Assembly: GCA_021775475.1 (NCBI GenBank)
Contig: JAJFHS010000028.1
Location: forward strand, 15,729-79,728
Length of the DNA: 64,000 bases
DNA from: Hyphomicrobiales bacterium
GTDB taxonomy: Bacteria > Pseudomonadota > Alphaproteobacteria > Rhizobiales > JAJFHR01
Reading direction: 5' to 3'
Part shown: piece by piece, positions 36,076-63,436 of the stretch
How the letters are laid out: each line of letters starts with the position of its first letter
Position numbering within the stretch: position 1 is the stretch's first letter
The notes under the pieces: generated by a model
What the model saw: the letters and a program-made list of their open reading frames with translations, nothing else
What the model was told of the DNA's origin: nothing
Databases searched by the model: none
Translations under genes and position numbers: made by a program

Positions 36076-36077
36076 AA

Positions 36078-47054: not shown

Positions 47055-47768
47055 ATGCAAAATTTCACCACCGCGCGGCATGGGTGTGAGGCTGCGGGCT
47101 CTTTTACCTGTATGGCGTCTGCAGATGATAATGGCGATCCCCTTGCACGGCTACCTTATCAGTTGACCGATATAGAAAGCGCTTTGAAACATGTCCGGCG
47201 TGCACCTTATCCAATTATCATTATTTCCAGCGGTGCGGCTGGCTTGCAACATTTTCTCAAAGATGGCCGACGAACCATTTCTACGATATTCCTGACCGGT
47301 GAAGTCCTGGATTTTAGTCAGATACGAGGAAGCGGGGGCTCGTTATGTTGCCTCCTTCCCGGCCAGGTACAAATGTTCAATGCGGTAGATCTGGAAAAAC
47401 TGCGACAGGAAAACCCACAAGCCTGGTCGAGCCTGATGGTTGATAAATTCAGGTGTTGTAGTCAAATCGCCAATCATTCCGTCGACCTTGCCCGCAAGTC
47501 TGCGGTTGAAAAGCTCGCTTCATTTATTTTTGAATGCCGCAACCGTCAGGCTGCCGAGCGTGGCAAACTCATAAACCTGATTTTAAACCGAATTGATATT
47601 GCAGATTATATGGGGTTGAGACCGGAAACACTTTCACGTGCTTTCACAAAACTGAAACAGCTTAAAATGATAGCCTGCGAGTGTGGAGATTGTATTCATA
47701 TTCTCAATGAGCCGGCCTTGCGACAAATTGCAAATGGTGCGGCCGACGAATTTGCCTGCGCGGTATGA
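47055..47768 (+). CDS. Crp/Fnr family transcriptional regulator (FixK-like; no canonical FNR Cys cluster)
   Basis: C-terminal HTH IADYMGLRPETLSRAFTKLK carries the E--SR recognition motif of FNR/FixK proteins that read TTGA-N6-TCAA. AGGAGG RBS. Confidence 0.82.
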   Translation: MQNFTTARHGCEAAGSFTCMASADDNGDPLARLPYQLTDIESALKHVRRAPYPIIIISSGAAGLQHFLKDGRRTISTIFLTGEVLDFSQIRGSGGSLCCLLPGQVQMFNAVDLEKLRQENPQAWSSLMVDKFRCCSQIANHSVDLARKSAVEKLASFIFECRNRQAAERGKLINLILNRIDIADYMGLRPETLSRAFTKLKQLKMIACECGDCIHILNEPALRQIANGAADEFACAV

Positions 47769-47772: not shown

Positions 47773-49170
47773 TTATGCTCTGGCAGAAATTCCCGCTCTG
47801 GCATTCGCGGGCGCTACCTGTGCGACATCGGGCAGGTAGCAGTTAATTTTGCTCGCTGTTGCCCGTGCTTGTTCTATGCAACTTCCGACAGACACACCGC
47901 CGAGATAATTTCCAGTGACATATAATCCGGGCTGACGCAGGTGCAAAGCCTCTATGGTTGAAACTTTAACGCTGTGCCCGATCTCATATTGCGGGATGCT
48001 GCGCGCCCATTGACGGCAGCGGGAAAAAATCGGCTCGCCACTGATTTCCAACAGATCTGATAGTTCGCGGTGTACCAGATGGCTGAGGTCATTGCTGTTC
48101 AGGCAGGCTGCGTCATGGTTGCCGCTGCCGCCCACATAAGCAGAAATCGAGACAAATCCATCGGGAGCCCTATTGGCAAACATGGTCGAAGGGAATTGCG
48201 CACCGTTGATAATTCCTCCTGACCCTGCCACACTCAAAAACCCCAGACTATCAAGGCGGTGGCTAACCTGCTGGCGGGCATAGGCCAGAAAAATGACGCT
48301 AAGAGGGGGGGCATCAATCGCGGCTGCGGCTGTTGCAGCTGGCTCATCCAATGGCTCAAGCAGGCTGGCGGCAACGTGTGGCTGAACGGCAAAGACAATT
48401 GTTCTGGCTATCAGGTCACCTGATCTGTGAGTCTCTAACCTGTAGCCTTGCGGGTGTTTTGAAACGGATTTGACTGCGGTGCCGGTTTTAATGCAACCGG
48501 CCATCGCGTTAGCCAAAGTCTTCGGCAATGTTGCGATACCATCGCGAAACGAAAACAGTCTTTTACCGGGTTCACCACTGTGTCCGGCGTTAAACACACC
48601 TCGCGTGACAGAACCGAATTGCTGCTCCATTTTCATTAGTTTAGGAAAGGCTGATTGCAAAGATAGCTTGTGAGCGTCCCCCGCAAAAATTCCAGCCACC
48701 AGCGGTGCCATGATTTTTTCGGCAAACTCGATGCCAAAGCGACGGCATATAAAGGCGTGAATGCTTTCATCTTCGTTATTTGTTTTGCGCGGGCGTAGTA
48801 TCTCGGTCATGAGACGAAGCCGCCCACGAACAGACAGATAGGGCGACATCAGGAAACCCGTGCGCTTAATTCCGATGCCGTGCAAGGTACCGCCGTCACG
48901 CAGATAGCGTTTGCGCACACCGAGGCCCAAATCAAGTAGCTGGTTTTCAATATCGAGATTTTTAGTCAATTCCAGCGCTTGCGGCACCAGGGTATTGAGG
49001 GTGGTGGGACCATGTTCCATCAAGAAACCATTGATGCGCTGGGATATGGCATTGCCGCCAACGGTTTGCTGGCGTTCGAGGACAATAACCCGGCGGCCAC
49101 TTCGCTGCAGATCATACGCTGTGGTCAGGCCGGAAATGCCCCCACCTATTATAGCAACATCGTAGGTCAT
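47773..49170 (-). CDS. HemY-type FAD-dependent (copro/proto)porphyrinogen oxidase-like protein
   Basis: 465 aa. DVAIIGGGISGLTTAY...LERQQTVGGN...EHGPTTL dinucleotide-fold N-terminus, and overall length as in HemY/PgoX/CgoX. ATGA overlap with the radical SAM gene. Confidence 0.68.
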   Translation of the reverse strand: MTYDVAIIGGGISGLTTAYDLQRSGRRVIVLERQQTVGGNAISQRINGFLMEHGPTTLNTLVPQALELTKNLDIENQLLDLGLGVRKRYLRDGGTLHGIGIKRTGFLMSPYLSVRGRLRLMTEILRPRKTNNEDESIHAFICRRFGIEFAEKIMAPLVAGIFAGDAHKLSLQSAFPKLMKMEQQFGSVTRGVFNAGHSGEPGKRLFSFRDGIATLPKTLANAMAGCIKTGTAVKSVSKHPQGYRLETHRSGDLIARTIVFAVQPHVAASLLEPLDEPAATAAAAIDAPPLSVIFLAYARQQVSHRLDSLGFLSVAGSGGIINGAQFPSTMFANRAPDGFVSISAYVGGSGNHDAACLNSNDLSHLVHRELSDLLEISGEPIFSRCRQWARSIPQYEIGHSVKVSTIEALHLRQPGLYVTGNYLGGVSVGSCIEQARATASKINCYLPDVAQVAPANARAGISARA

Positions 49171-50453
49171 GACACCTCAGGCCTTTTGATGCCCGGTGGC
49201 ATGCCATTTTTGAACCGCTCTTTGGCCAGACGCGAAAGGTCATCTGCTGTGACCGTTGATCCGCCCTTTGAGCGCACATCTGCCTCAACGCGATTTTTGA
49301 CCATACGGCGAACGAAACCGGGTATGCGGGCAACGCGTTGTTGGGCATCGTCTGTCCAGTTGAGGTTAGTCTCACCGGTTTTCAAAACTTCGATGATTGC
49401 CCCGTTTTGCGGCTGGTATGAACATAGAAAGTCTTCACCCATGAGATCGTTTGAGCGCGCCAGCGGCCGGGCGCGACAACCGCCACACAGTTTTTGAAAT
49501 TCACAAACCCCGCAACGCCCTTCCAGTTGTGGCTGGCGCAGGGCGGTAAAAATCTCACCATCCTGCCAGATGTCGGAAAAACTGTTGTGGCGCAAAGACC
49601 CGCCGGAGGTTTCGATGAACGGACAAGGGGTTACCTCACCTTCGGGTGTGACGCGGGCATATCGTGTGCCGGCAATACAGCCACCGGCTTCATAACCATG
49701 AGCCATGGTGATCGGCCATTCCGGGTCGAGATCAAGCGCCAGTCGTTTGAAATGCGGCGCACATTTAGCGCGCACCATCAATTGCTTTTCATCGTGGGCA
49801 GCCTCGACAACGCGCTTGAGCACCTTGTCGTAATTTTCAATCGAAATATCGGTGTATTTCTCACCACGCCCGGTGCACACCAGAAAAAACACATTGAGCA
49901 CCAAAGCCTGTGCCTGCCGGGCAAAGCTGATCATGTCGTCAATTTCATCTGCGGTATGATCGGTAACCGAAAAATGTATCTGGAAGGCTAGACCTTCTTT
50001 GCGGCAGGCATCTATGGCGGCCATGGTTTTCAACCAGGCACCTCTGCGGCCGCGAAAATCATCATGCTTTTGCGGATCAAGGGAATCGATACTCAGACCA
50101 ATACCGGCAACCCCGGATTTTTTGAGACGCTTTACCCGTTCAGCTGTCAAAGTGATACCGTTGGATCCAATGACGACCATCAGCCCGAGTTTGCTGGCGT
50201 GGGCTGCCAATTCTTCGATGTCTGGGCGCAGCAACGGTTCACCACCGGTCAATACGATCATACACTCCGGCCCAACGCTGGCGATGTCACTGATGGCCCT
50301 TTTTACCTCGTCGGTAGACAATTCATCGGTGCTGCCGTTTTTCAGAATTTCAGCATCAAGATAACAATGCGTGCACGACAGGTTGCACCGTTTTGTCAAA
50401 TTGAAGGCGACAAGAAAAGGTGCCTCTACCGGATTAGAATCTGGTCTAGTCAT
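49167..50453 (-). CDS. radical SAM/SPASM protein of the NirJ/AhbC/AhbD tetrapyrrole-modifying type with a C-terminal BchB-C-terminal-like (PCP_red) module
   Basis: CNLSCTHCY cluster motif, NVFFLVCTGRG and AKCAPHFKR (family hallmarks), SPASM cysteines (GGCIAG...CPF, CGVCEFQKLCGGCRARP), and the tail WTDDAQQRVARIPGFVRRMVKNRVE. The ATG at 50453 overlaps the upstream stop by 8 nt; the track ORF to 50714 is rejected. Confidence 0.78.
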   Translation of the reverse strand: MTRPDSNPVEAPFLVAFNLTKRCNLSCTHCYLDAEILKNGSTDELSTDEVKRAISDIASVGPECMIVLTGGEPLLRPDIEELAAHASKLGLMVVIGSNGITLTAERVKRLKKSGVAGIGLSIDSLDPQKHDDFRGRRGAWLKTMAAIDACRKEGLAFQIHFSVTDHTADEIDDMISFARQAQALVLNVFFLVCTGRGEKYTDISIENYDKVLKRVVEAAHDEKQLMVRAKCAPHFKRLALDLDPEWPITMAHGYEAGGCIAGTRYARVTPEGEVTPCPFIETSGGSLRHNSFSDIWQDGEIFTALRQPQLEGRCGVCEFQKLCGGCRARPLARSNDLMGEDFLCSYQPQNGAIIEVLKTGETNLNWTDDAQQRVARIPGFVRRMVKNRVEADVRSKGGSTVTADDLSRLAKERFKNGMPPGIKRPEVS

Positions 50454-52107
50454 GATCGCGCTCGGTTGCATCAGGCTTCGGGCACATGGCTTTTCGCGCT
50501 TTGGCAAAACCCCCTTCGGCAACCTCACCATCAACGCGAACTTCACCGTTTGCGCGCACATAATCTTCAATGGTTTGCCTGGCTTTGGACCGAAAAATTT
50601 CCGGCACTCTTTGCAGTCGTGCCAGATAGGCTGCTGCCCACTCGAGATCATTGTGGTAAGTCTCGGCAACAAAAGGTTGCACGTGTTGTGGTAATACTTC
50701 GGTGGCAGCATCACGGCGGGCGGATTTTTCTGCTCTCAGGCGAATATTTTCCTGCAACACCTTGTCATCCAGCGTTGCCAGCAGGGCCGTTGCTGCGGCA
50801 TTCCAGGCGAGCGGGTCAAAACCTGAACTGACGGGTGTTTCATCACCGTCAGAATTTCCGCCCGGCATCATTTTTTTCATCACATCTTCAACAAAGCGGC
50901 TGGTGATGAATGTATGTCCCTCTGCATGGGCCTGGCGAATAACCGAGGTGCGGGCGATGCCACGGACAAAATCAGGCGCGCGCGACATCATTGCATCAGC
51001 CTCGTCAGACCACATTATGGTTTCTTCAGCGATAACATCAAGCGAAGGAAAATGGGTCTTTTGGCCAATCCAGATGTGGCACGGTGCCATCCGTAACAGA
51101 TTTTCCGTGGTGCCGCCGATGTCGAGTTCTTCATCACCATGAACGCCAACCTTTCCTACCATCAACAAGCTTGCGTCAACTTTTTCGAGATATTTGCGGA
51201 TGGCCTGAAACGGTTTTCCTGAAACCAGCTTGCAGATGATGTTGACACCTTCTTCTTCGGCCACAGTTTTGGCAATGGCAAGATGGGATTGGTAGATCTT
51301 GGCAATACCATCATCAATCAGTTCTTCGTGCAGCTGTTCCTGCTCTTTAAACCGAAACACTTTTCCCGCCTCATCAGATAAAACACCGGCAATCTTGTTA
51401 AAGGCAACGTAGTGATAATAGGGATCATAAGCTGCAACTGCGTGCACGTCGGCACCGATCTGGCGGGCGATCATCAGTGCGGATTTGAGAACTCCGAAAG
51501 ACTGGGGTGAGCCGTCAATTCCGACAACGATTGGTCCATCACCAATGCTGGTTTTGCGGTCTTTGATTACCAGCACATCAATTGGCGCGCGCCGTACAAC
51601 ACGTTCGCAAACGCTGCCAATAATACTGCCTGCAACCGCACCAAGCCCGCGGGAGCCCAGGGCGAGCACGTCAAATTCTCCGGTTTTAGCCGCATCAATG
51701 ATGCAGGTGTAGTTTTTACCTTCCGGGCTCAACCTTTTGAATTTTACTTGGGATTTTTCGCATTTGGCTTGAGCCGTATCATGGTAACTGTCGGAAATAA
51801 TGCCAAGTCCCTTGCCAATCAGGTCTTCATGTACGTCGCGCTGGTGTTCCATTTCGGTTTCATAACGATAACGTTCCGGCAATCCGCCTTCCATCTGCTT
51901 GAAACGCCGGTCATGCATTTTGGCAGCATAGGCATGAATGCCTATTATATTGCCATTGATTGGCTTAACCAATTTGATGGCTTCGACAACTGCCTGGTTG
52001 GCGAGGTCTGATTGATCAAGGGCGACAAGAATATTGTTCAGGCGAACCGGTGCTGTACCGACTTGCTCATCGGCAATTTTTTCAGTGTGCGCCCTTGCTG
52101 TAGACAT
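50446..52107 (-). CDS. tandem universal stress protein (2x Usp) fused to three PCP_red-like modules
   Basis: Usp domains at about aa 24-182 (GSRGLGAVAGSIIGSV) and 192-348. From aa 366 come three ~45-aa repeats starting WSDEADAMMSRAPDFVRG, WNAAATALLATLDDKVLQ and WAAAYLARLQRVPEIFRS. Confidence 0.75.
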   Translation of the reverse strand: MSTARAHTEKIADEQVGTAPVRLNNILVALDQSDLANQAVVEAIKLVKPINGNIIGIHAYAAKMHDRRFKQMEGGLPERYRYETEMEHQRDVHEDLIGKGLGIISDSYHDTAQAKCEKSQVKFKRLSPEGKNYTCIIDAAKTGEFDVLALGSRGLGAVAGSIIGSVCERVVRRAPIDVLVIKDRKTSIGDGPIVVGIDGSPQSFGVLKSALMIARQIGADVHAVAAYDPYYHYVAFNKIAGVLSDEAGKVFRFKEQEQLHEELIDDGIAKIYQSHLAIAKTVAEEEGVNIICKLVSGKPFQAIRKYLEKVDASLLMVGKVGVHGDEELDIGGTTENLLRMAPCHIWIGQKTHFPSLDVIAEETIMWSDEADAMMSRAPDFVRGIARTSVIRQAHAEGHTFITSRFVEDVMKKMMPGGNSDGDETPVSSGFDPLAWNAAATALLATLDDKVLQENIRLRAEKSARRDAATEVLPQHVQPFVAETYHNDLEWAAAYLARLQRVPEIFRSKARQTIEDYVRANGEVRVDGEVAEGGFAKARKAMCPKPDATERDHD

Positions 52108-52123
52108 TTTCTGCTCCCGCTAA

Positions 52124-52234
52124 CTATCCGTACAGCAGCCAATAGCCAAAAATCAAAGCTATAACCGCAACATTTACAGCCGCACCAGCCAGTACAAAAC
52201 CGTCAAAGGCATTGAGCTTTTTTTTAGGTGTCAT
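52124..52234 (-). CDS. 36-aa single-TM peptide (not in the ORF track)
   Basis: ATG at 52234 with a GAGG 8 nt upstream. MTPKKKLNAFDGFVLAGAAVNVAVIALIFGYWLLYG* has a basic N-terminus followed by one hydrophobic helix. It fills the only gap in the operon. Confidence 0.45.
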   Translation of the reverse strand: MTPKKKLNAFDGFVLAGAAVNVAVIALIFGYWLLYG

Positions 52235-52261
52235 GGCCTCGACCTCAGGTTTGCCGGATGA

Positions 52262-53002
52262 TCAGAATGACAGGTCGATTTTGGTGTCGGCGCCAGAGGC
52301 AACCTTTACCTTGCCACTCTTGATTTCACCTAAAAACCCCTGCCACAGCCTGATTTTGTATTCGCCAGGCGGTATGTCACCGATGGTGAACTCACCGTTT
52401 TCATTAACAACGGAAAAATAAGGGCTTTGGGCAACGAACATATAGGCATGCATAAAATCATGCGCGTCGCACTCGATTTTCATGCCGGCACCTTTACGCA
52501 TTTTGATTTTCTTGGTTACCTTGTCCCCGGCGTTGGGCTGCGACACGTTTATTGCTGTGCGTCTTGCTTTGCCGATAAGTTCGTAGGTGTGGATGTTATG
52601 CAGGGTTTTATCTGAATTAACAGCGGTGAGTTTTCCGCCATTCGCCATCACGGAAAATCCGGGAGCAAACGCGCATTTTTCCTGATTGATGGTTACATTC
52701 ATCAGCTCTTTTGGAAATGCTTTACCCTGCTTGACTTTGTACAGAAAGACTATCGCATTTTTTACAGTGCCGTTTTTGTTAATTTCAACAAGGGGCACAA
52801 TGCGTTTGCCTTCACCACAGATTTGTGGATCCTTGGAAATAGTGAATGTTTTTGTTTTCTCGACAACACCGCCTGCCATAACTTTTCCCGAAATACTGCC
52901 ACCATCGGAGACATCGATTTCCTTGTACTTTGCGGCGTGAGCCAATCCGGTAAAACTTACCAATGCAACTGTGCAGAGTATTCCTTTAAACAATCTATTC
53001 AT
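52262..53002 (-). CDS. periplasmic cupredoxin-like protein with amicyanin-type ligand spacing plus a C-terminal Ig-like (carboxypeptidase-regulatory-like) domain
   Basis: Signal peptide MNRLFKGILCTVALVSFTGLAHA. Candidate type-1 Cu ligands are H in TLHNIHTYE and C-x2-H-x2-M in IECDAHDFMHAYM. C-terminal GEFTIGDIPPGEYKIRLW. Confidence 0.6.
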   Translation of the reverse strand: MNRLFKGILCTVALVSFTGLAHAAKYKEIDVSDGGSISGKVMAGGVVEKTKTFTISKDPQICGEGKRIVPLVEINKNGTVKNAIVFLYKVKQGKAFPKELMNVTINQEKCAFAPGFSVMANGGKLTAVNSDKTLHNIHTYELIGKARRTAINVSQPNAGDKVTKKIKMRKGAGMKIECDAHDFMHAYMFVAQSPYFSVVNENGEFTIGDIPPGEYKIRLWQGFLGEIKSGKVKVASGADTKIDLSF

Positions 53003-53038
53003 CGACGTTTCCTCTTCGTTAAATGTTGAAAATAGGGC

Positions 53039-55207
53039 TCAGGCGGCGGCTTGGATATCACCATTTTCTGAATAGCTGAAGAGATCTCCAAGCGCTTCGA
53101 TGGCGACCAGCCATGCCCGCTTGTTGTCATCATCATCAAGAATATTGAGATATTTTTCCGCCGCTTCATTGGCGTTCCAGTCCTTGAGCATGGCGACAAT
53201 ATCGCGACGGTGCATACCATCATGCGCCAGGCTTAATTCAACCAGAACATCCATTTGAGAGCGCCGGTTGGCAAGGACTTGAGCCGCAGCAATTCGAACC
53301 CCGGAATAATTATCATCAAGTGCACGCAACAGGCTTTCCACATGACCTTTCTTGCGACCAAGGGCTGTGATGGCTTCACGGCGAGCATGCACATCGCCAT
53401 CACTGCATAACTCGACCAGGACATCTTCAACCTCTTTGCCCTTGATGTAACCGAGGCAACGGGCGCCAAGCATGCGAACAACACGATCTTTATGCTGAGT
53501 TTCTTTTAGGATTGCCGGGTACAGGCGTTTTTTCAATTTCCCCCGCCGATTGGCAATGAGAGCCAGACTTTCCAGACAGGATTGTTTGAGCTCAACATCA
53601 TCATCTCCTAAGGCCTGGCCCAGAGCTCTAGTCACTCCCGGAAAATCAAAGTCACCCAGAAGACAGGCAGTAAACCGGCGAACATCACGATGGGGAGCTA
53701 CTTTGGCATCCAGCGATACCTTGCCTTTTTTCATCGCGCGCAATTTCGATATTTCGAGGAATTTTTTATCGTCTTCGGAAAGTTTTATTTCCTCCGGTTC
53801 CGGTTCATTTTTGAGGGCCGGTTCGGTGCCAACTCCATCGCGTAAAATTTTATCCAATGTGGATGTGGCAGGAGATTGTTCTTCGGGCACAACATCGTCA
53901 ACGTCTCTGGCTGTTTCTTGTTCTGTGTCGTCTACGTCCTCAACCGCCTCGACAAGTTCGCCTCGAAGCGCCGCGAGGAGACTGTCCCCGGCCGTGTTGG
54001 GCCATTTACCTGAGGTAGCAATTTCTGCCAGCGCCGACATGGTCGAGATGCGGATCTGTCTGTTGCTGTTGCCAATGGTATCCAGCAGATAGGGCAGACC
54101 GGCATCATCGAGCAAGGTTAGTGCTTCAATCAAGCCAAGCCGAAAAATCAGTGGTTGTTCAGGGTTTTGCAGTGCTCGCCCCAAGCTTTTTGCTGATTCT
54201 TTTCCAATCATGCCTGCCCAGGCGACAGCTGCGGCACCGGCAACTTCCGGTATGCCGATTATGGCCTTTTTGACAATCTCGGAAAAACCTTCTTTTTCAA
54301 ACGCTCCGGGTTCAACGGCAATTGACCTGAAGATTGTTTCCCGGACTTTCGCAGACTTGTCAGACAATCTCTCCATCGCCAAACCAGGTTCGTTTGAGCT
54401 TATTGTTTTGGCAATCAGAATGCGCACATCAACATCATTGTCACTGAAGTATGCGGCAAGACGGGCGTCTTCAGGGTCATTATCAATTATTTTTTCCAGA
54501 GCAACATAGCGAACTTCACCTGCGTTATCGGCCAGACACTTTTCCAAAAGTCCATCCATTTCGACAGATTGCCCTGGCTGTAAAACCGAACAGACCCGGC
54601 GGCGCGTGCGTGCGTCACCTTCGGTGTACAATGTGGTCAGTGCGGCAACACCTTCGGTTTTAAGTTGAGCCAGAGCCGGGATGGCAACCTGGGTCAGGTC
54701 TTGACCCTCGTCATTTTTCAATTCGTTCATAATGACAGTGACGGATTTAGCTGTACCAACTTTACCCAGCGCCTTGATTGCCGCCAGTTGAATGTCGAGC
54801 CAGTCATCCCAGCCTGAGGCATAACAATCGTCATCTCCCCAGTTTATTTCTTCTTCCCGGCCCGCAACTATTGTATGCAGCCAGGGGACAACCGGGCGAT
54901 GGTTGACGCTGGCAAGCAATTCAATTGCTGACAGTTTGACTTCTGGGCAGGGGTCACCGAGAAGATTTTCCATGATGGCACCGGCAGCTTGCGTTTCGTC
55001 AAGTTCAAGCAAGGCGGCGGCGGCATCGGTCCTTACATCTTCATCTTCATCCAGCAGTGCCTGTTGCAGCACGGGTCCAGCTCCGGGATGAGCAATCTTG
55101 CCCACCGCCTTTGCTGCGGCACAACGATGAATATCCAGCCCCTCCAAAACGAGAGTACTCAGTTGGGTAAATGCTCTTTCTTTTGCAGATTTTGCTCTTG
55201 TTACCAT
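53039..55207 (-). CDS. HEAT-repeat (PBS-lyase HEAT-like) protein, cytoplasmic
   Basis: About 722 aa of repeated D.d..VR..AA.AL units with a central acidic/Lys-rich linker and no signal peptide. ATG at 55207; the track start 55213 is TTG. Confidence 0.75.
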   Translation of the reverse strand: MVTRAKSAKERAFTQLSTLVLEGLDIHRCAAAKAVGKIAHPGAGPVLQQALLDEDEDVRTDAAAALLELDETQAAGAIMENLLGDPCPEVKLSAIELLASVNHRPVVPWLHTIVAGREEEINWGDDDCYASGWDDWLDIQLAAIKALGKVGTAKSVTVIMNELKNDEGQDLTQVAIPALAQLKTEGVAALTTLYTEGDARTRRRVCSVLQPGQSVEMDGLLEKCLADNAGEVRYVALEKIIDNDPEDARLAAYFSDNDVDVRILIAKTISSNEPGLAMERLSDKSAKVRETIFRSIAVEPGAFEKEGFSEIVKKAIIGIPEVAGAAAVAWAGMIGKESAKSLGRALQNPEQPLIFRLGLIEALTLLDDAGLPYLLDTIGNSNRQIRISTMSALAEIATSGKWPNTAGDSLLAALRGELVEAVEDVDDTEQETARDVDDVVPEEQSPATSTLDKILRDGVGTEPALKNEPEPEEIKLSEDDKKFLEISKLRAMKKGKVSLDAKVAPHRDVRRFTACLLGDFDFPGVTRALGQALGDDDVELKQSCLESLALIANRRGKLKKRLYPAILKETQHKDRVVRMLGARCLGYIKGKEVEDVLVELCSDGDVHARREAITALGRKKGHVESLLRALDDNYSGVRIAAAQVLANRRSQMDVLVELSLAHDGMHRRDIVAMLKDWNANEAAEKYLNILDDDDNKRAWLVAIEALGDLFSYSENGDIQAAA

Positions 55208-55270
55208 GATCAATGTCCCAGAACGTCCTGTTTTGTGGGTTCAATTGAGCACAATCGGCGGCGGCCTCCC

Positions 55271-55284
55271 TTGACATATGTCAA
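55271..55284. promoter_or_regulatory. perfect palindromic FNR/FixK-type box TTGACATATGTCAA upstream of the HEAT-repeat operon
   Basis: TTGA-N6-TCAA, fully self-complementary. The centre is 70 nt upstream of the ATG at 55207. Confidence 0.65.
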
Positions 55285-55341: not shown

Positions 55342-55378
55342 AAAACCGGAAGAGGCCTATTCTCTTCCGGTTTTTTTT
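55342..55378 (-). terminator. rho-independent terminator after the Mo-oxidoreductase gene
   Basis: 9-bp stem CCGGAAGAG / CTCTTCCGG (55346-55354 / 55362-55370) extended by A/T pairs, with T-runs on both strands. It begins 32 nt past the stop at 55410. Confidence 0.6.
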
Positions 55379-55409: not shown

Positions 55410-58085
55410 TCAGACCGGGATATCGCGCGGTGCAAAAGACATCGACCGGAACGTGTTTTTGTAAGGGGATATACCAATTTTTTTGATCCTGGCAACGCCC
55501 ATTTTGTAGTTGTAGTTACCACTCATCCAGTCAACAACACGCCCTTCCAATGCGTTTGCCGGCTGCGATGTGTGCAGGAAGTCCATATAAAGAACCCCTT
55601 TCTTCACCGCCCGCGTAACCATGGCTACAGCGGTAACCGCTGCTTCGCTGAGTTCGACGTTGCCGTTCTTCATCTGGCCAGAGAACTTGTAGTCATCACC
55701 TTCCACCCCAAGGATCGTCTCCTTGAGTGAGGGCACGCGATCGGAATAGATCATCACCATATCGCCGCTTTCAATACCACGGGCCTTGGCGTCTTCCGGG
55801 TTGATTTCAACCCAGTTTTCAGGCCAGCGCTGCACGATATAGGGGCGACGGCGATCATCAAAGCCTGACTGCCAACGCTCATTTGAGCGACCCGATGTAC
55901 ACCACAACTCGTCATCCTTGGGACGCATCCATTCCCAATAATCTGAAAACCACGACCATTGCCCCTTTTCAAGATTGCAACGTCCGGTCTGGGAATTGAA
56001 GTGTGTGGTCTTCTTGTTGACCATGTTGGCTCCAGCTGGGCCGGTTGGCGACAATTTCATTTGCGTATCGTGCAGTCGCTTTGTGCCGACCAGAGTACCA
56101 TCATCCAGCATCGACACCGGACCCTGAATACCATTGGTGCCAAATTCCCTGAGTTTTTGATGCAGGGTTTTGCCTTCACGTTTGGCGGCAACTTTGACCA
56201 TATTGTAGTCTTTACGGCTGCCACGTGAAAAGCGTGCGGATTCTTCAGCAACTTCGTTGGAGTTTTTCCAGTCAAAGCCTTTATAGCCCATGCGAGTAGC
56301 CAGTTGGGCGATGATCCACCAATCCGGCTTTGCGTCCCCCGGCGGATCGTAGAACTTCTGGTACAGGCGCAGACGGCGCTCGCCGTTGGCACGCATAAAG
56401 TCTTCTTCCCCCCATGTAGCTGCCGGGAAGATGATATCGGCAAACTGGTTGCCAATCGGATCGACCAGATAAATGTCCTGGTTAATGATCACCATGCCAC
56501 CTGAATCAGCCCGTTTTTTCAAGGTTTCAATGATTTTCTCTTTATTGAGAGAACGCACCTGATGCGGATTGCCATTGGTGAGTTCATGGAACTTGGCAGC
56601 CAATTCGAATGACCCGCACATGGATTGAATCCAGGTAGTTCCGATGACATGGGCCATGCGGGTGTGACCGGCCATGGTCCAGGTATCGGTGTCAAGTGCG
56701 CGGCGACGACGACCGGGCAGTTTCATCGGTGATTTGTTGCGTGGATATTTGCCACCGCCAACACCGCCGCGTTGATGGCCGCCAGCACGACCGATCATCT
56801 GACCAGGTCTGCCGCCGGCACCGACTATGATGCCCAGTGCCGAGATGGCAACGGTATTACCAGTATTGTTTGACCAGTAAAATCCCTTCTCGATCATGAC
56901 CGATGTTTTCGGGCGTTTGCCTTTGACAGGTTTTGCCATCATCTCAGCGGCAAGCTGAATTTTTTCTGCATCAATGCCGGACATTTTTGAGGCATTTTCT
57001 AACGTGTAATCATCTTGCGACAACAGCCATTTCTTCCAGTCCTCAAAGCCCTTGGTCTGGAACTGGCCCCAGGTGGTACGCCATTGCCACGGCGTGTTGC
57101 GGGTGCCCTGGCCAAATCCTGATGAGGAGCCCCACTTGTCGTTGACCCAGTTTTTAATCCACTCTTTGTCCTGCCAGCCGTTTTCTACAATGATGCGGGC
57201 AATGGCATTGACCACAAGAAGGTCTGTGCCAGGAGTTACATCAAGCCACAGGCCACCATTTTGCTCGGCATAAGCGACACCGGCAGTGCGACGTGGCACC
57301 ATCATAATGGTTTTCTGGCCGTTTTGAATACCCTTCATAATCCACTGTGTGAACAGGATTGTTTTGGTTTCATAAGGGTCGGTTCCGCAGATAAGCAGTG
57401 TTTCGGCGTCGCGCCAATCTTCATAAGAAGGCGCAAAGTTATCAAATCCAGCGTTGCGAAAACCCGGCGTTGAAGAGACGTTCGACGGGGTGTCATGGAA
57501 AGTGAAGTTCGCCGTGTTAACGGAACCGAGTGCGAATTTTGTGATCGCGTAGGTGTTTTCAATATATTGATAGGAGAATGTTTTGACACCGTAAGCCAAA
57601 GGCCCATGCTTTTCGATCACATATTTTGCAACAGCAGCAGCGACATCAAGTGCCAGATCCCAGGTAACCGGTTGAAGAATGCCGTGAATACGCATCAACG
57701 GCGTGGTCAGGCGGTCGCGCGTGGGTTTTTGGGGATTGTAGCATTTTTGTGCGATACAGCCACCGCGAAGCGATGAATCGCCGTCGGTATTAACGGCTTT
57801 GGTTTCCTTGTCAGGCAGGATGACCACATGATGGGGTTCGTCCTCGTGAAGCACGATGTTGTGCTGGTTGGGGGCTACCCAGGGGCCGAGCACTTCCACG
57901 GGGAAGTCGACGCCGAAGGCATTTTCTCCCGCCTTGGCACCGCCGCGCTTGCCGCCTTTTACCGGCCAGCGATAAACTTTGTAGCCGCAGGCAACGATGC
58001 AATAATCGCACGCCGTAGATATAACATCCGCATCCTTGGGAGGCAGGGGTACATCTGTATCTGGAATATAATATGGTGTTGACAT
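55410..58085 (-). CDS. molybdopterin (bis-MGD) oxidoreductase catalytic subunit of the arsenite oxidase AioA / iodate reductase IdrA family
   Basis: 891 aa. N-terminal C-x2-C-x3-C (CDYCIVACGYKVY), which I read as AioA-like 3Fe-4S-type by analogy with AioA (no alignment run; the next Cys lies about 80 residues downstream). GRAGGHQRG motif. C-terminal tail similar to AioA. No signal peptide (Tat hitch-hiker). Confidence 0.8.
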   Translation of the reverse strand: MSTPYYIPDTDVPLPPKDADVISTACDYCIVACGYKVYRWPVKGGKRGGAKAGENAFGVDFPVEVLGPWVAPNQHNIVLHEDEPHHVVILPDKETKAVNTDGDSSLRGGCIAQKCYNPQKPTRDRLTTPLMRIHGILQPVTWDLALDVAAAVAKYVIEKHGPLAYGVKTFSYQYIENTYAITKFALGSVNTANFTFHDTPSNVSSTPGFRNAGFDNFAPSYEDWRDAETLLICGTDPYETKTILFTQWIMKGIQNGQKTIMMVPRRTAGVAYAEQNGGLWLDVTPGTDLLVVNAIARIIVENGWQDKEWIKNWVNDKWGSSSGFGQGTRNTPWQWRTTWGQFQTKGFEDWKKWLLSQDDYTLENASKMSGIDAEKIQLAAEMMAKPVKGKRPKTSVMIEKGFYWSNNTGNTVAISALGIIVGAGGRPGQMIGRAGGHQRGGVGGGKYPRNKSPMKLPGRRRRALDTDTWTMAGHTRMAHVIGTTWIQSMCGSFELAAKFHELTNGNPHQVRSLNKEKIIETLKKRADSGGMVIINQDIYLVDPIGNQFADIIFPAATWGEEDFMRANGERRLRLYQKFYDPPGDAKPDWWIIAQLATRMGYKGFDWKNSNEVAEESARFSRGSRKDYNMVKVAAKREGKTLHQKLREFGTNGIQGPVSMLDDGTLVGTKRLHDTQMKLSPTGPAGANMVNKKTTHFNSQTGRCNLEKGQWSWFSDYWEWMRPKDDELWCTSGRSNERWQSGFDDRRRPYIVQRWPENWVEINPEDAKARGIESGDMVMIYSDRVPSLKETILGVEGDDYKFSGQMKNGNVELSEAAVTAVAMVTRAVKKGVLYMDFLHTSQPANALEGRVVDWMSGNYNYKMGVARIKKIGISPYKNTFRSMSFAPRDIPV

Positions 58086-58102
58086 AACTCACTTCTCCCG
58101 AA

Positions 58103-58687
58103 TTAGCTGTGCAGATTGTTTTCGCGACCAAAAATCAGCCCAAAAATGCCAGTGGCATAGACACTGTCACCTTCGATTTCGAGCAAAATTTGCGGCAGGC
58201 TCTGATAAGCCTGACCTGAGATCAAAATGCCGTGGCGGGTGAGGTCATAAGTTGAAAGATGTAGCGGACAGGCACCAAGTGATTTGGTTTCAGCTTTGTA
58301 ACTGCCAGACAATGAGTTGCCCTGGTGGGTGCAGGCGTAATTGTAAGCGACAATATCCTGGTCCTTACCCAAACCACCGCCAGCTTTAACGCCGAGCTTG
58401 ACCACCATGTTATCAGAATATTCGCCCTCATCAGGGTAGTTGAAGTCAAGCGGTTCATCCTGCTTCAGTTCGGACAGTTTGCAGATAAATTTGCGCGGAT
58501 AATTGGTGATCTGCGCCGGCACAGCCTTAGCATCAGCAGTCCCCGGGTTCAGGGTCACCATTACAGTGACAGTTGTCGCCCCGGTGCCAATAAGAAAGTT
58601 GCGACGTGAAACCAGACATTTGTGGCCGACTTCTTTCGCCAGCTGCTTTCTCGACCGGGTGTTTTTATAGACAGTTGTTTTGGCCAT
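58103..58687 (-). CDS. Rieske [2Fe-2S] small subunit with Tat signal (AioB / IdrB family)
   Basis: Twin-arginine leader SRRNFLIGTGA. Rieske ligand boxes CTH and CPLH. Small-before-large gene order as in aioBA. Confidence 0.82.
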   Translation of the reverse strand: MAKTTVYKNTRSRKQLAKEVGHKCLVSRRNFLIGTGATTVTVMVTLNPGTADAKAVPAQITNYPRKFICKLSELKQDEPLDFNYPDEGEYSDNMVVKLGVKAGGGLGKDQDIVAYNYACTHQGNSLSGSYKAETKSLGACPLHLSTYDLTRHGILISGQAYQSLPQILLEIEGDSVYATGIFGLIFGRENNLHS

Positions 58688-58699
58688 TTTTGATCCCCT

Positions 58700-59854
58700 T
58701 TAATTTTTTGCCGGATTGGGTAGTGGTGCATATGGCGGAAGCGTTGGTGGCTCAACCACCAGTTCTTCCCCGCTAAAGGCGTCAAGGAAAGCCACAAGAT
58801 CTTCGACTTCTTTTTCAGACAATCCCAGTGGCTTGATTAAAGGCGATTTGCTTTTTGCCATGGTGCCATCGGTAAAGTCATTTTCGCCGCCACCCTGGTT
58901 ATAAAATTCAACAACCTCTGTCAGGTCCCAGAACGAACCATTGTGCATATAAGGAGCTGTGTACTTGAGATAGCGCAGAGGAGGAGTTCTGAACTTGCCC
59001 ATGTCGACCTTCTGCTTGGTGCGATAATAAAGACCTGCATCGTCTTTTATTTTACGATACATTTTTTGCGTTACACCTTTGGCAAACTGTTCGTAACGGA
59101 AGGTGATTTGAGCCAGACCGTCTTCTCCCCAGCGTTCGGAAGGAGGCACGCCCAGATTGTAATATTTCTGGTCGGTGGCAAGTGCGCCATTATGGCAGGC
59201 AATACAACCAGCCTTGCCGTTGAACAGTTCCAGCCCGCGTTTTTGCTGGGCGCTGAGGGCTTTTTTGTCACCGCGCAGATACTTGTCCAGCGGTGTGTTG
59301 TTGTGGATCAACGTGCGTTCGAACGAGGCAATTGCCTTCCAGGCATCCGAAATTAGTGGCCAATCGGTGCCAAAGGATTGTTTGAAAAGTTTGCGATATT
59401 CCGGAATGAAAGCCAGCCTTGCCTCCATCACATCATTTTCACCATTGCCGGCAACACCACCTTTGGCAGCACTCGGAGCCTGCTTTTCCAAAGACGAGGC
59501 GGCACCGACCCAGAACAACTTCATCAGGTAAGCAGAATTCACCACCGTTTGACTGTTACGCCAGTGAACCGTACCGGGATAGCCGCGTGACAATGCATCA
59601 CCAAAGCCCCAACCCTGATCGGGTTCATGGCAGGTCACGCAACCGGTGGAGGCATCGCCGCCAAGCCGAGGGTCCCAAAACAACATCTTGCCAAGCTTGA
59701 CTTTAACATCTGACAGCTTGTTGTCAGCTGGAATTGGCGGATCTCCCAGAGGTGCCAATGGCGGCACGTCTGATCCAGCGTGTACGATGCCAACGGTGGC
59801 GACGGTGATGAGTGCTCCGGCGAGGAGACCCGATATTTTCTTTGCAAATTTCAT
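58700..59854 (-). CDS. dihaem cytochrome c peroxidase (CCP/MauG family; IdrP-like position)
   Basis: Signal peptide. Two CxxCH motifs (CVTCHEP, CIACHNG). TAPYMHNGSF motif. Confidence 0.88.
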   Translation of the reverse strand: MKFAKKISGLLAGALITVATVGIVHAGSDVPPLAPLGDPPIPADNKLSDVKVKLGKMLFWDPRLGGDASTGCVTCHEPDQGWGFGDALSRGYPGTVHWRNSQTVVNSAYLMKLFWVGAASSLEKQAPSAAKGGVAGNGENDVMEARLAFIPEYRKLFKQSFGTDWPLISDAWKAIASFERTLIHNNTPLDKYLRGDKKALSAQQKRGLELFNGKAGCIACHNGALATDQKYYNLGVPPSERWGEDGLAQITFRYEQFAKGVTQKMYRKIKDDAGLYYRTKQKVDMGKFRTPPLRYLKYTAPYMHNGSFWDLTEVVEFYNQGGGENDFTDGTMAKSKSPLIKPLGLSEKEVEDLVAFLDAFSGEELVVEPPTLPPYAPLPNPAKN

Positions 59855-59872
59855 CGAATAATCTCCCTTGAT

Positions 59873-60994
59873 CTAATTTTTAACGGCGCGCCAGTTTTCG
59901 ATGGCGGTATAATTGGTGGGGATTTTTTCCTTCCAGACGAATTCCTTGGTGTTCAATGGATCGCCTGACAGAGCCTCCAGGAAGGCAACAAGATCTTTTT
60001 GTTGACCAAACGTCAGCTCAAGCGGTTTTAAATTCTTATCTTTGTTTTTATCTTCACCACCACCGTGGTTATAAAAAGCCACCACTTCAAACAGCGAATT
60101 AAACATGCCGTTGTGCATATAAGGTGCAGTGTATTTCAACTCGCGCAAAGTTGGCGTGGCGAACTTCGCAATATTGGAACCATCGGCTTTGGGGTTGAGG
60201 ATGTTGGCACCGACATCACGACGAACATTCATGATATTTCCAATGCCCATAAATGTGCCAAAAGCCACATAGGTCATATGACGCATTGGATCAGACCAGA
60301 TTTCCGGGTTTTCCGGAACGCCAAGATTATAGACCTTGTCGTTGGTAAAATTTGCCCCACTATGGCAGCTGGCACATTGCGCTTTGCCTTTGAACAATTC
60401 ATATCCACGTTTGGCTGCGGGTGTCATGGACCCTTTGTCAAAGGGGGAGTTGCGCGACGTCAGTGTTTTCAAATACTCAGGTATGGCTTTTCGAACCGAA
60501 CCGTTGGAAGGTTCACCATAGCCCGCATCTTTGAACATCTTTACGTATACAGGATCCTGCTTGAGACGCTCCTGCATCAGGCGCATGTCCATGTTCATGA
60601 TGTAATCTTCAGTGATCATCTCACGCGTAACATCATTCAGATTGGTGCCAATGCGACTGTCGTGGAACCAGTTTTTCCGGGTCGCGGTATTTATCAAAGT
60701 AGGTGTATTGCGAAATCCTTTTGAGCCCGGATAGGCTTTGGACAAAGCCAGACCGTCGCTGAAACCTTTGTCAGGCTGGTGACAGGTGGCACAACTGATT
60801 GCTGCATCACCGGACAGCCTTTGGTCAAAAAACAAACGTTTGCCGAGTTCCGCTTTTTTGGCATCAACTTTGATCGGCTTGATTGGCCCCTGATTGTTTT
60901 GGCCAGCAATTACAGTGCCTAAAAAAACAATAGAACCAATCAGTCCCGTTGACAGCGCCAGCATAAATCTTGTTTTGCTACCGAACGTCTTCAT
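59873..60994 (-). CDS. dihaem cytochrome c peroxidase (CCP/MauG family; IdrP-like position), paralogue of the previous gene
   Basis: CATCHQP and CASCHSG haem motifs. TAPYMHNGMF. I place the start at ATG 60994 (MKTFGSKTRFMLALS..., AAGGGAG RBS), because the track start 61084 overlaps the FNR-type box. Confidence 0.85.
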   Translation of the reverse strand: MKTFGSKTRFMLALSTGLIGSIVFLGTVIAGQNNQGPIKPIKVDAKKAELGKRLFFDQRLSGDAAISCATCHQPDKGFSDGLALSKAYPGSKGFRNTPTLINTATRKNWFHDSRIGTNLNDVTREMITEDYIMNMDMRLMQERLKQDPVYVKMFKDAGYGEPSNGSVRKAIPEYLKTLTSRNSPFDKGSMTPAAKRGYELFKGKAQCASCHSGANFTNDKVYNLGVPENPEIWSDPMRHMTYVAFGTFMGIGNIMNVRRDVGANILNPKADGSNIAKFATPTLRELKYTAPYMHNGMFNSLFEVVAFYNHGGGEDKNKDKNLKPLELTFGQQKDLVAFLEALSGDPLNTKEFVWKEKIPTNYTAIENWRAVKN

Positions 60995-61083
60995 GGAGTT
61001 ACTCCCTTTTGTTCCCGGGTGAGTCGACGAGACATCGTCCACAAATGCTGCGTTACTGTCGCTGGCAATGCCATGTGGGGTCA

Positions 61084-61097
61084 TTGACGAATGTCAA
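61084..61097. promoter_or_regulatory. perfect-arm FNR/FixK-type box TTGACGAATGTCAA upstream of the peroxidase / Rieske / Mo-enzyme operon
   Basis: TTGAC-N4-GTCAA. The centre is 96 nt upstream of the ATG at 60994. Third copy of this motif within 14 kb. Confidence 0.62.
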
Positions 61098-61168: not shown

Positions 61169-63436
61169 CTAAACGGAGAATTTGCGGCGCTGCTGCCGCA
61201 CCAAACCCAGGAACAACAGACCGGCAAAAAGGCCCGTGCCGGCGGGAACAGCGATTAGTGTCACCCGGTCTTCGCGCGCTTCCAGCTTCAGCCAGTACCA
61301 TGAGGCAAATGAATGGCGGCCGCCTTTTTCACCGGCAAGACCATCCCAGTTGGCAAAAGAAATTGGTATATATTTTTCTTCTTCAAATTGCAGGTCGAGC
61401 GCATTGTCGGTGACCAGGCTACGATTGAATACAACGCGCCAGCGGCCATCTTTCCAGACACCTTTGGCGGCAAGCCCGCTTGTGTCCTTACGTGGAGCGG
61501 GAGCAGCATTGGGCCCGTTTGCATCCAGCACTAAGGTGCGGGCATTATCTTTAGGCTCAACACTTGGTGCCTGCCAGTACCACATGTTAACGGCACGGTT
61601 TTTGTCGCCGTGACGAAATGCGGGCTTTTCACTTGTAAGAGGAATTAATCGTGGCAATTGAACGGCAATGGCATCGCGGGTTGGTTCGACATCGGCCAGT
61701 CTGTATTGTTTTTCCAGCTTATCGCCGGGTACCGAATAGGTGCGATCATCCACATCAACACGTATGGCCAGATTTTTGTCATTAAACAGAACGCGGATTG
61801 TCGCCCGGTCGTTCAGGGAAAAGAACAATCGAGGTTCTTTGATAATGTTCGGCGCCATGGCAAATGTCATGGGCAATGCTTTACCCCATTCAGGATCGCC
61901 CGGATCTGTTGGAAGCTCACCATCCACACGCCGGGCTTTGATAACTGTCTCACCTTTGGATAACTGTACGGAAGTGTTTCTTAACGACATTACATAATTG
62001 GCAATGTTCCAGCGATCATCGGTTGACATAGTGGTTGTGTGTTCGGGCATTGGTGTCGAGCGAATACCGGTTGAGATGCGTTCAAACACATCTTTTGCGG
62101 TTTTGGTAAAACGCCAGGTTTCCGGCCGGGTCAGATTGCGTGGCCAAATGCGATCCTGCCAATCATCTTTCAGTTTTTTACCTGAGGTAATATTACCGCG
62201 CCCCGATAGCCCGTGACATTGAGCGCAGGCTTTTACAAATGATTTCCAGCCCTTGGCGATTGATTCAGGTGAGGTTTTGACCTGTTGACCGGGATCAATG
62301 GGTTTGTTTTCAATATCTTCTTCATCCCAGTCACCAAATTTCTTGATCTTCAATATCAGACCGTCCACTTCGCGTGGCGTAAGAATGGATTTCCACGCCG
62401 GCATGGCGGTACCCGGCAGACCTTGCAGAATGGTCTTGCGCAAATCATCATCATACGGAAATTCATTATCTGCACTGGTGGTCTTGTATTTGAATGACGC
62501 TATGGTGAAATCGCGCGGCTTGGGGTAGAGAAATTCAGCTGCCGGGCCGGTGCCATCACCTTCGACGCCGTGACACTGAGCACAGCGTTTGGCGTAAACA
62601 GTGTCAATTGAGACTTCCTTGGTTTTTTTGTCTTCAGGCGCAGCGGCAGTCGCTACCGATTTGTCCGGCGCATCTTCAAGTTCCCATGATCGCGGGGCAT
62701 AACCGGTGTAGTCATACAGGAATGTGATGAGTTTCCAGACTTCCTCTTCTTTCAGCATTCCACGCCACACCGGCATGGCTGAGGCCCACGGGGTTCCTTC
62801 GCGTGGCAGGCCGGGACCACCTGTGGTTATGCGCCAGAAAAGAAAAGATTCCTGCAGTTGCGCAATGGTTCTGACATCTTGAAAATTAATCGGCCGGGGA
62901 TTGAATGCGGGCGCAAAAACTCCGGCACCATCAAGCATGTCACCATGGCAAAACACACAGTTTTTATAATAAAGCTGTCTGCCTTCTGCGACCGCTGATT
63001 GATATCCTTGCGATCCTTTTGGATTGGCATCACGAATAGGATTGGTCAATTTGAGCAGGTTGAAGGTTTTGCCATAGACCTTAAGCGATGAAGGTGGTGC
63101 AGGATGTACTGTGCGCAATTCTACCGGCGAGGCCGTTGTTGGCTTTATCTTGTTGTAAGTAAAACCAGCGACGCCGCCAACAATTACAATCAGAGCAACT
63201 CCGCGAGCCATGGCCATTTTCGGACTGCCCAGAAGGGTTATAATTGGTGCAACAAACCGGCTGGCGGAAGTGTCCTCGAAAGTCGCAACCAAAACAACGG
63301 AGACGGCTATGATGATCATATACTGAATGACGATTGATTGCGGCAACGGTGGCGAAATGATTTGTGTGAACACCACGTAGGCGGCAACGAGTGTCAGAAT
63401 AGACAGAAACAGGGGATGTGAAAAAAAACGTTTCAT
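61169..63436 (-). CDS. membrane-anchored trihaem cytochrome c fused to an EB_dh (ethylbenzene-dehydrogenase gamma / DOMON-like haem b) domain
   Basis: Three N-terminal TM helices. Three CxxCH motifs (CVFCHG, CAQCHG, CAQCHG). The C-terminal ~250 aa has the EB_dh pattern (NMWYWQA, GVWKDGRWRVVFNRSL, ISFANWDG). A final TM helix follows. Confidence 0.72.
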   Translation of the reverse strand: MKRFFSHPLFLSILTLVAAYVVFTQIISPPLPQSIVIQYMIIIAVSVVLVATFEDTSASRFVAPIITLLGSPKMAMARGVALIVIVGGVAGFTYNKIKPTTASPVELRTVHPAPPSSLKVYGKTFNLLKLTNPIRDANPKGSQGYQSAVAEGRQLYYKNCVFCHGDMLDGAGVFAPAFNPRPINFQDVRTIAQLQESFLFWRITTGGPGLPREGTPWASAMPVWRGMLKEEEVWKLITFLYDYTGYAPRSWELEDAPDKSVATAAAPEDKKTKEVSIDTVYAKRCAQCHGVEGDGTGPAAEFLYPKPRDFTIASFKYKTTSADNEFPYDDDLRKTILQGLPGTAMPAWKSILTPREVDGLILKIKKFGDWDEEDIENKPIDPGQQVKTSPESIAKGWKSFVKACAQCHGLSGRGNITSGKKLKDDWQDRIWPRNLTRPETWRFTKTAKDVFERISTGIRSTPMPEHTTTMSTDDRWNIANYVMSLRNTSVQLSKGETVIKARRVDGELPTDPGDPEWGKALPMTFAMAPNIIKEPRLFFSLNDRATIRVLFNDKNLAIRVDVDDRTYSVPGDKLEKQYRLADVEPTRDAIAVQLPRLIPLTSEKPAFRHGDKNRAVNMWYWQAPSVEPKDNARTLVLDANGPNAAPAPRKDTSGLAAKGVWKDGRWRVVFNRSLVTDNALDLQFEEEKYIPISFANWDGLAGEKGGRHSFASWYWLKLEAREDRVTLIAVPAGTGLFAGLLFLGLVRQQRRKFSV

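Follow-up and report, generated by a model that had tools for sequence, protein, structure and literature searches.

A putative iodate reductase operon and a conserved set of neighbouring electron-carrier and tetrapyrrole genes in an uncultured alphaproteobacterium

The four-gene core and the affiliation of its molybdenum subunit

A stretch of 64,000 nucleotides of contig JAJFHS010000028.1, from an uncultured alphaproteobacterium and referred to throughout as the window, carries four closely spaced genes on its minus strand. They encode, in the order of transcription, two di-haem proteins of the cytochrome c peroxidase (CCP)/MauG family, here CCP-a and CCP-b, a Rieske protein bearing a signal for twin-arginine translocation (Tat), and an 891-residue molybdenum (Mo) subunit. 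These genes very probably form an idrP2-idrP1-idrB-idrA operon for a periplasmic iodate reductase of the IdrABP1P2 type.

Pfam and NCBIfam profile searches of the translated open reading frames (ORFs) of the window identify the domains of the four proteins, and the intergenic gaps are 18, 12 and 17 nt, as an initial annotation of the window had it when it described four tightly spaced genes with an AioA-style cysteine motif in the large subunit and the small subunit gene ahead of the large one. The motif for the [3Fe-4S] cluster in the Mo subunit is C26-x2-C29-x3-C33...S104, that is C-x2-C-x3-C-x70-S, and this subunit has no signal peptide. The translation of the Rieske subunit contains SRRNFL and CTH-x18-CPLH, the latter matching the Rieske pattern C-x-H-x18-C-x2-H, while the two proteins at the IdrP positions each have a CCP_MauG domain, two haem c motifs and, as read from their translations, a hydrophobic N-terminus resembling a Sec signal.

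The start of CCP-a required correction. In the list of ORFs it runs from 59873 to 61084 (403 aa), but an ATG at 61084 would overlap an FNR-type box. The orthologues start at the equivalent of a downstream ATG, and one of them has an in-frame stop between the two positions, so that we take 60994 as the real start; it is preceded by a ribosome-binding site, AAGGGAG, and gives a protein with a signal-like N-terminus.

To place the Mo subunit we compared it with IdrA of Denitromonas iodatirespirans IR-12, whose idrA gene was found through an exact match to IR361_F, a cloning primer from the literature, and whose deletion abolishes growth on iodate (PMC8692401). The two proteins are 50% identical (885 bits), whereas identity to AioA-like proteins is 31–34%. 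Scores against TIGR02693, the model for AioA, are 412.9 bits for the window protein, 438.7 for IR-12 IdrA and 1011–1149 for the AioA-like proteins; as the cut-off is 359, both the window protein and IR-12 IdrA exceed it, and the cut-off is blind to the division between IdrA and AioA. The closest solved structures of the Mo subunit are arsenite oxidases (277 bits).

Further relatives, all uncharacterised, were gathered by three protein-seeded scans of genome contigs, from each of which the best 80 were taken; Denitromonas, Pseudomonas sp. SCT, Azoarcus DN11 and Roseovarius azorensis were not among these. In a neighbour-joining tree of 212 sequences and 887 columns, the 197 sequences from idr loci (196 fetched loci and the window), IR-12 included, constitute one clade, outside which lie intermediate clusters and then AioA. 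The clade has a bootstrap value of 97/100 in a 64-taxon subset. The phylogeny with AioA and IdrA references that the initial annotation had proposed thus groups the protein with IR-12 IdrA, and does not nest it within AioA; on these comparisons the Mo subunit is assigned to the IdrA clade rather than to AioA. Relatives at 70–76% identity occur in Labrenzia alba, Ruegeria halocynthiae, Pelagimonas varians and Endozoicomonas OPT23, each of which is among the idr holders in Table S3 of Reyes-Umana et al. 2021 (PMC8692401).

The residues of the substrate pocket follow the same division. In the alignment the window protein has H197-D-T-P-S201-N-V-S-S205 and R433-A-G-G-H437-Q-R439, where AioA-like proteins have H-N-R-P-A-Y-N-S-E and R-L-G-G-H-Q-E. 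Within the IdrA clade the equivalent of AioA Asn196 is Asp in 194 of 197 sequences, that of Ala199 is Ser in 172 of 197, and that of Glu203 is Ser in 174 of 197 and Asp in 13 sequences of the IR-12 type; the Glu which follows HQ in AioA is Arg in all sequences compared (196/196). The window protein carries all four of these changes. Among the arsenite-binding residues it retains the equivalents of His195, Arg419 and His423, with Ser205 standing at the position of Glu203. A by-eye comparison in the initial annotation had suggested that R-x-G-G-H was kept and an acidic residue lost, and the alignment bears out both observations; replacement of the acidic pocket residue is a clade-wide signature of IdrA.

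Gene order separates the two enzyme types as well. Among 135 unique relatives with sufficient flanking sequence, CCP-a and IdrB are each found in 133 and CCP-b in 134, and the order P-P-B-A is near-universal in the loci surveyed for order. In IR-12, the ORF which ends directly upstream of idrA aligns with the C-terminus of the window IdrB, placing idrB directly before idrA. Reyes-Umana et al. 2021 define idr loci by idrA and idrB in synteny with two cytochrome c peroxidase genes, whereas aio loci are without CCP genes (PMC8692401). Two loci from sister clades situated between IdrA and AioA (L235:5501-8634 and L236:1283-4607; these clades are 38–46% identical to the window protein) have Rieske and Mo genes and lack CCP genes, and their position outside the IdrA clade agrees with the published definition; clades of this kind mark the transition between the two types of enzyme. 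As for the two CCP genes themselves, the Idr proteins of Azoarcus DN11 have consecutive accessions in the order A, B, P1, P2, and because of this order, hence by position alone, we treat the gene beside idrB as the equivalent of idrP1 and the first gene of the operon as that of idrP2.

The initial annotation had also named aioXSR, ars and cld-like genes as telling for the rest of the genome. Family-library scans of the larger ORFs across the 64-kb window, to which this result applies, gave no match to any of these families, and no aio neighbours of the cytC or moeA type are found among the ORFs scanned there. Phylogeny, profile scores, pocket residues and gene order agree with one another and with the lack of aio and ars genes in the window; together they support reading the operon as an iodate reductase, and so uphold the view in the initial annotation that the genes form an IdrP-P-B-A module and not a classical arsenite oxidase.

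Regulatory sites and neighbouring genes

The coordinates of the core genes, of the genes on either side and of the regulatory sites are collected in Table 1.

Table 1. Features of the putative idr operon and its surroundings, in window coordinates.
Feature	Position	Strand	Basis or remark
Mono-haem cytochrome c, 167 aa	63433..63936	-	Pfam Cytochrom_C; conserved together with the 755-aa protein
Tri-haem cytochrome c fused to EB_dh/NxrC-like haem b domain, 755 aa, predicted membrane-anchored	61169..63436	-	Three cytochrome c domains and EB_dh
FNR/FixK-type palindrome TTGAC-N4-GTCAA, TTGACATTCGTCAA	61084..61097	.	About 97 nt upstream of the start of the gene at the idrP2 position
CCP-a, di-haem CCP/MauG family, idrP2 position, 373 aa	59873..60994 (corrected start)	-	PF03150 140 bits; two CxxCH
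CCP-b, di-haem CCP/MauG family, idrP1 position, 384 aa	58700..59854	-	PF03150 133 bits; two CxxCH
Putative idrB, Tat-exported Rieske [2Fe-2S] subunit, 194 aa	58103..58687	-	TIGR02694 113 bits; SRRNFL Tat motif
Putative idrA, Mo-bisMGD (bis-molybdopterin guanine dinucleotide)/[3Fe-4S] catalytic subunit, 891 aa	55410..58085	-	Pfam Rieske_3, Molybdopterin, Molydop_binding
Intrinsic terminator-like hairpin after idrA	55342..55374	-	13–14 bp stem, 6 GC pairs, T-run; top-scoring site of scan
Second exact FNR/FixK-type box	55271..55284	.	Upstream of HEAT gene, beyond the idrA terminator
HEAT/PBS-lyase-like repeat protein, ~722 aa	53039..55213	-	HEAT_2 133 bits and HEAT_PBS; signal peptide not evident in translation
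p246, secreted cupredoxin-like protein, 246 aa, C-terminal Ig-like domain	52262..53002	-	AlphaFold2 (AF2) model, Foldseek, ligand motif
Usp domains fused to two PCP_red domains, 553 aa	50446..52107	-	Pfam Usp 122 bits, PCP_red 60 bits
AhbD/NirJ-type radical SAM/SPASM enzyme with C-terminal PCP_red, start uncertain	49167..50453	-	NirJ2 308 and AhbD 291 bits, below cut-offs; Pfam Radical_SAM, SPASM, PCP_red
HemY-type protoporphyrinogen/coproporphyrinogen oxidase-like flavoprotein, 465 aa	47773..49170	-	TIGR00562 284 bits (cut-off 98); Pfam Amino_oxidase
CRP/FNR-family regulator, divergent from the cluster	47055..47768	+	FixK and FnrL models weak; Pfam HTH_Crp_2
One-mismatch box, TTGACCTTGATCAA	46975..46988		About 65 nt upstream of the CRP/FNR-family gene

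The palindrome ahead of the operon, which the initial annotation had seen together with a terminator behind it, is an exact match to TTGAC-N4-GTCAA, and the hairpin and T-run after idrA are likewise in place. There are only two exact copies of the palindrome in the 64 kb, the other being situated in the spacer between idrA and the HEAT gene. We searched the relatives for a relaxed form, TTGAY-N4-RTCAA, for which the background is 1 per 31 kb. Of 172 relatives, 31 have it ahead of the first CCP gene, and of 75, 14 have it within the idrA-HEAT spacer. In the 11 loci with the full extended cluster it precedes the first CCP gene in 9 and occupies the idrA-HEAT spacer in 8, and is found almost nowhere else. 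The CRP/FNR-family gene beyond the cluster could be autoregulated or could form part of a regulatory cascade; an N-terminal cysteine cluster of the FNR type is not evident in its translation.

In Roseovarius azorensis, transcription of idr goes up in static (low-oxygen) cultures, and as little as 0.1 μM iodate elicits a response (PMC11445184). Given these data, the boxes with their conserved positions and the neighbouring CRP/FNR gene, we infer that low oxygen would switch on transcription through a regulator of this family acting at TTGAC-N4-GTCAA. The description of the operon as anaerobically induced in the initial annotation is to this extent plausible.

Upstream of the core, the 755-aa protein scores 86 bits against TIGR03477 and 49.7 bits against EB_dh, and its matches in the PDB are chain B of the Kuenenia di-haem cytochrome 6H5L (126 bits), EbdC and NxrC. 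The predicted membrane anchor is read from the hydrophobic ends of its translation. Of 135 relatives, 21 have the gene in linkage with idr. Directly upstream of the cytochrome c gene, relatives have a gene for a membrane protein resembling cytochrome bd subunit I (for example L002:161-1801; likewise in L003, L007, L009, L021, L030, L043 and L058-L060), which is present in 49 of 128 idr loci. It is not within the window, the end of which (64000) lies only 64 nt past the cytochrome c gene.

Downstream of the core, the HEAT gene follows idrA in 51 of 135 relatives and is itself followed in the window by the gene for p246, a protein that is annotated everywhere as hypothetical. The AF2 model of p246 is confident, with a predicted local distance difference test (pLDDT) score of 87.7, and the top Foldseek matches to its central domain are pseudoazurin, plastocyanin and amicyanin. 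Because of these fold matches, together with invariant residues (H135, H138 and C178-x2-H181-x2-M184) in the ligand spacing of amicyanin, p246 is predicted to be a type-1 copper protein.

The gene occurs in 64 of 135 well-flanked idr loci, where it precedes the first CCP gene or follows the HEAT gene, and in a metagenome scan seeded with p246 every homologue of at least 39% identity with an extending contig adjoins the idr core or genes of the accessory set. The linkage of p246 to idr persists where the operons are divergent or reordered and where the IdrA shares only 49% identity with that of the window. It does not extend to the whole cupredoxin family, an idea which we rejected since homologues of p246 at 37% identity or less are found in unrelated contexts.

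The operon behind the second FNR-type box (47773-55213) has a tetrapyrrole theme, seen in its HEAT/PBS-lyase-like, Usp-PCP_red, radical SAM/SPASM and HemY-type proteins, and is linked to idr across phyla and rearrangements; the Usp-PCP_red gene is co-conserved with the other accessory genes. At least one accessory gene is present in 79 of 128 well-flanked idr loci. That the downstream genes are chance neighbours was considered and rejected, as the linkage survives rearrangement and IdrA divergence over a range of 49–90%.

At least one metagenome contig (Ga0256834_1000001; L264:1-20744) has the accessory set and no idr core within 10 kb. It carries genes for a bd-like protein (4903-6807), cytochrome c, cytochrome c/EB_dh and a SCO1 copper chaperone on one side, and on the divergent side genes for HEAT, cupredoxin, Usp with four PCP_red domains, radical SAM with three PCP_red domains, HemY-like and PAS histidine kinase proteins. 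The occurrence of the set there without the core suggests that it may serve other terminal enzymes too.

A literature search combining idrA with cupredoxin, azurin or HEAT gave nothing relevant among the papers listed, and neither cupredoxin nor azurin comes up in the principal paper on idr (PMC8692401). The linkage of idr to an electron-carrier and tetrapyrrole gene set looks to be undescribed in the idr literature.

Elsewhere in the window a Calvin-cycle operon (29184-36632) encodes a form II-type RuBisCO large subunit of 459 aa, with no small subunit gene, along with FBPase, phosphoribulokinase, class II aldolase, ribulose-phosphate epimerase, a HAD phosphatase, a peroxiredoxin and a divergent LysR (CbbR-like) regulator. 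The organism that carries this idr locus thus also has a Calvin-cycle operon, which fits its earlier description as autotrophy-capable. Other large ORFs of the window encode transporters, beta-oxidation enzymes and methylmalonyl-CoA mutase.

Proposed function and the alternatives

If the operon encodes an iodate reductase, the published models (PMC8692401, PMC10149662) would have IdrA exported together with IdrB through the Tat system, electrons passing from a high-potential periplasmic carrier to the Rieske cluster, on to [3Fe-4S] and finally to Mo-bisMGD, and IO3- being reduced there to HIO and finally to I-. The CCP-like proteins would remove H2O2 or another oxidant by-product, or would form part of the complex.

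To this we add that the carrier chain may be encoded next door, with the bd-like membrane protein, the mono-haem cytochrome c, the tri-haem c/NxrC-like protein and the cupredoxin linking the membrane to IdrB, and that the downstream operon under the second box may supply accessory and tetrapyrrole-related functions. The accessory set would then provide Idr, in many lineages, with electrons and with the means of its maturation. We tentatively extend this to a broader proposal, which is quite possible though we would not lean on it: that the idr core forms the middle of a supercluster of some 12 genes, ancient and mobile, comprising a high-potential chain that links the membrane to IdrB and a co-regulated operon which makes or inserts a tetrapyrrole cofactor suited to low oxygen.

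Several points weigh against the assignment as an iodate reductase, or limit how far it can be taken. The proven IdrA in our comparison is that of IR-12, to the exclusion of those of SCT and of R. azorensis (WP_093034476.1), the latter both closer and tested. Identity to the IR-12 protein is just 50%, and the window protein falls into a different sub-clade. With Ser in place of Asp at the Glu203 equivalent, its handling of substrate may differ from that of IR-12. The tree was built by neighbour-joining and not by maximum likelihood, and the Mo subunit stands formally above the NCBI cut-off for arsenite oxidase (412.9 versus 359). The role of the CCP-like Idr proteins is unsettled in the literature. 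Finally, the aerobic alphaproteobacteria that have been tested reduce iodate and do not grow anaerobically on it, so that respiration may be too strong a word for this system; the growth by iodate respiration envisaged in the initial annotation is for the same reason overstated or at least uncertain.

On the other side, IdrA of R. azorensis has been identified in an iodate-active gel band, and marine aerobic Alphaproteobacteria with idr clusters reduce iodate under oxygen limitation (PMC11445184).

That the genes instead encode an AioBA arsenite oxidase, as the database label of their relatives says, is in our judgement very improbable. The two subunits do pass the cut-offs of TIGR02693 and TIGR02694, the nearest solved structures are those of AioA, and the small-before-large order, the 3Fe-4S motif and the equivalents of Arg419 and His423 are shared. 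However, the Mo subunit scores 413 bits where AioA-like proteins reach 1011–1149, stands apart from them in the tree at 31–34% identity, and has Ser for Glu203 along with three other changes in the pocket; moreover aioXSR and ars genes were not found in the 64 kb, and the constant link to two CCP genes is missing from aio loci (PMC8692401).

Less remote, although still improbable, is an enzyme of the Idr family that acts on another oxidant (bromate, chlorate, selenate or a peroxide-linked substrate), or that serves as a mere electron sink or detoxifier without energy conservation. The 50% identity to a proven IdrA and the Ser in place of Asp in the pocket leave room for a different substrate, and high-potential carriers like those of NXR clusters would suit any high-potential acceptor. 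A role as a sink gains from the idr-bearing aerobic alphaproteobacteria that lack anaerobic growth on iodate, for which the authors propose just such a role. Both variants are countered by the monophyly of the clade and its conserved synteny.

A further alternative concerns the CCP/MauG proteins and not the enzyme as a whole. Instead of scavenging peroxide, they might be the subunits through which electrons enter the Idr complex, or might act like MauG and MbnH on a partner protein, for instance the cupredoxin, and mature it by modification; we regard this as rather unlikely. In its favour, the best NCBIfam matches are MbnH and MauG, although neither reaches its cut-off; in SCT and DN11 the active gel bands contain IdrP1 and IdrP2 co-migrating with IdrA; and the presence of the genes in 133–134 of 135 loci is a stronger linkage than a generic detoxifier would predict. 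Yet the nearest solved relatives are genuine bacterial di-haem peroxidases. For CCP-b these give 149 bits, with the di-haem enzyme 6e1c at 136 bits, whereas CCP-a, markedly more divergent, gives 88 bits against peroxidases in the PDB, and the proteins align with MacA and with the peroxidases of Pseudomonas and Marinobacter. As for maturation of the cupredoxin, roughly half of the idr loci lack that protein, while the CCP genes are always there.

The reading as an iodate reductase has consequences beyond this locus. Idr clusters of marine Alphaproteobacteria were published in 2021 and partly tested in 2024, and the present locus adds another uncultured marine alphaproteobacterial carrier; what looks new beyond the published idr genes is that the core lies within a wider conserved group of genes for electron carriers and tetrapyrrole functions, which offers testable candidates for the electron donor of Idr and for its other requirements. 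Reduction of iodate by marine bacteria yields iodide, which governs the deposition of ozone at the sea surface and how much iodine the atmosphere receives.

Close relatives of the Mo subunit are named 'arsenate reductase (azurin) large subunit' in public databases, and the whole IdrA clade passes TIGR02693. As this model captures the entire clade, iodate reductases are labelled as arsenite oxidase across hundreds of genomes and metagenome contigs, which distorts surveys of arsenic- and iodine-cycle genes.

Comparison with known systems

The closest known systems are the IdrABP1P2 enzymes of SCT, IR-12, DN11 and marine aerobes such as R. azorensis, with which the window shares the four proteins, their cofactor motifs and export signals, the gene order and the clade of the Mo subunit, and a pocket signature that is equal except at one position. 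The window contains every motif described for the DN11 Idr proteins: C-x2-C-x3-C-x70-S in the Mo subunit, C-x-H-x18-C-x2-H and a Tat signal in the Rieske protein, and a pair of CxxCH in each peroxidase. There are nevertheless differences within this group. IR-12 IdrA, at 50% identity, has Asp where the window IdrA has Ser at the Glu203 equivalent. In DN11 a sigma-54 two-component pair lies upstream of idr, whereas the window apparently relies on an FNR-type box. The accessory set of the window is absent from the 5 kb that we fetched downstream of IR-12 idrA, where there is instead a mercuric-reductase-like gene, as read from its translation, consistent with the mer genes reported near IR-12 idr (PMC8692401).

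With AioAB, as known from Alcaligenes faecalis (1G8K) and Rhizobium NT-26 (4AAY), the window enzyme has in common the fold family, a large subunit with 3Fe-4S and Mo-bisMGD, a Tat-Rieske small subunit, the order of small before large, the equivalents of His195, Arg419 and His423, and a cupredoxin or cytochrome c as the likely redox partner. It differs in its separate clade at 31–34% identity, in having HD.PS...S and HQR where AioA has HNRPA...E and HQE, in the lack of aioXSR and the presence of two CCP genes, and presumably in an opposite flow of electrons.

The two proteins at the IdrP positions resemble the CCP/MauG/MbnH superfamily in having PF03150 and two CxxCH motifs, but they remain under the cut-offs of all curated sub-families, CCP-a being especially divergent.

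The accessory genes recall another system altogether. The nxr clusters of Kuenenia, Nitrospira and Nitrospina include a conserved accessory set of unexplained function, in which cupredoxins and mono- and di-haem cytochromes c accompany a bd-like oxidase and an alternative NxrC (Lucker et al. 2013, PMC3578206). The same list of parts, matched as parts and not by orthology, is found in the window or in its 78–95% identical relatives. The partner enzyme in the window is Idr, and NXR genes of the NarG type are absent from it; furthermore, the cytochrome c and NxrC-like parts are fused in the window, in a protein whose hydrophobic ends suggest a membrane anchor. The accessory genes of idr may help to explain the similar set in the nxr clusters of nitrite oxidisers.

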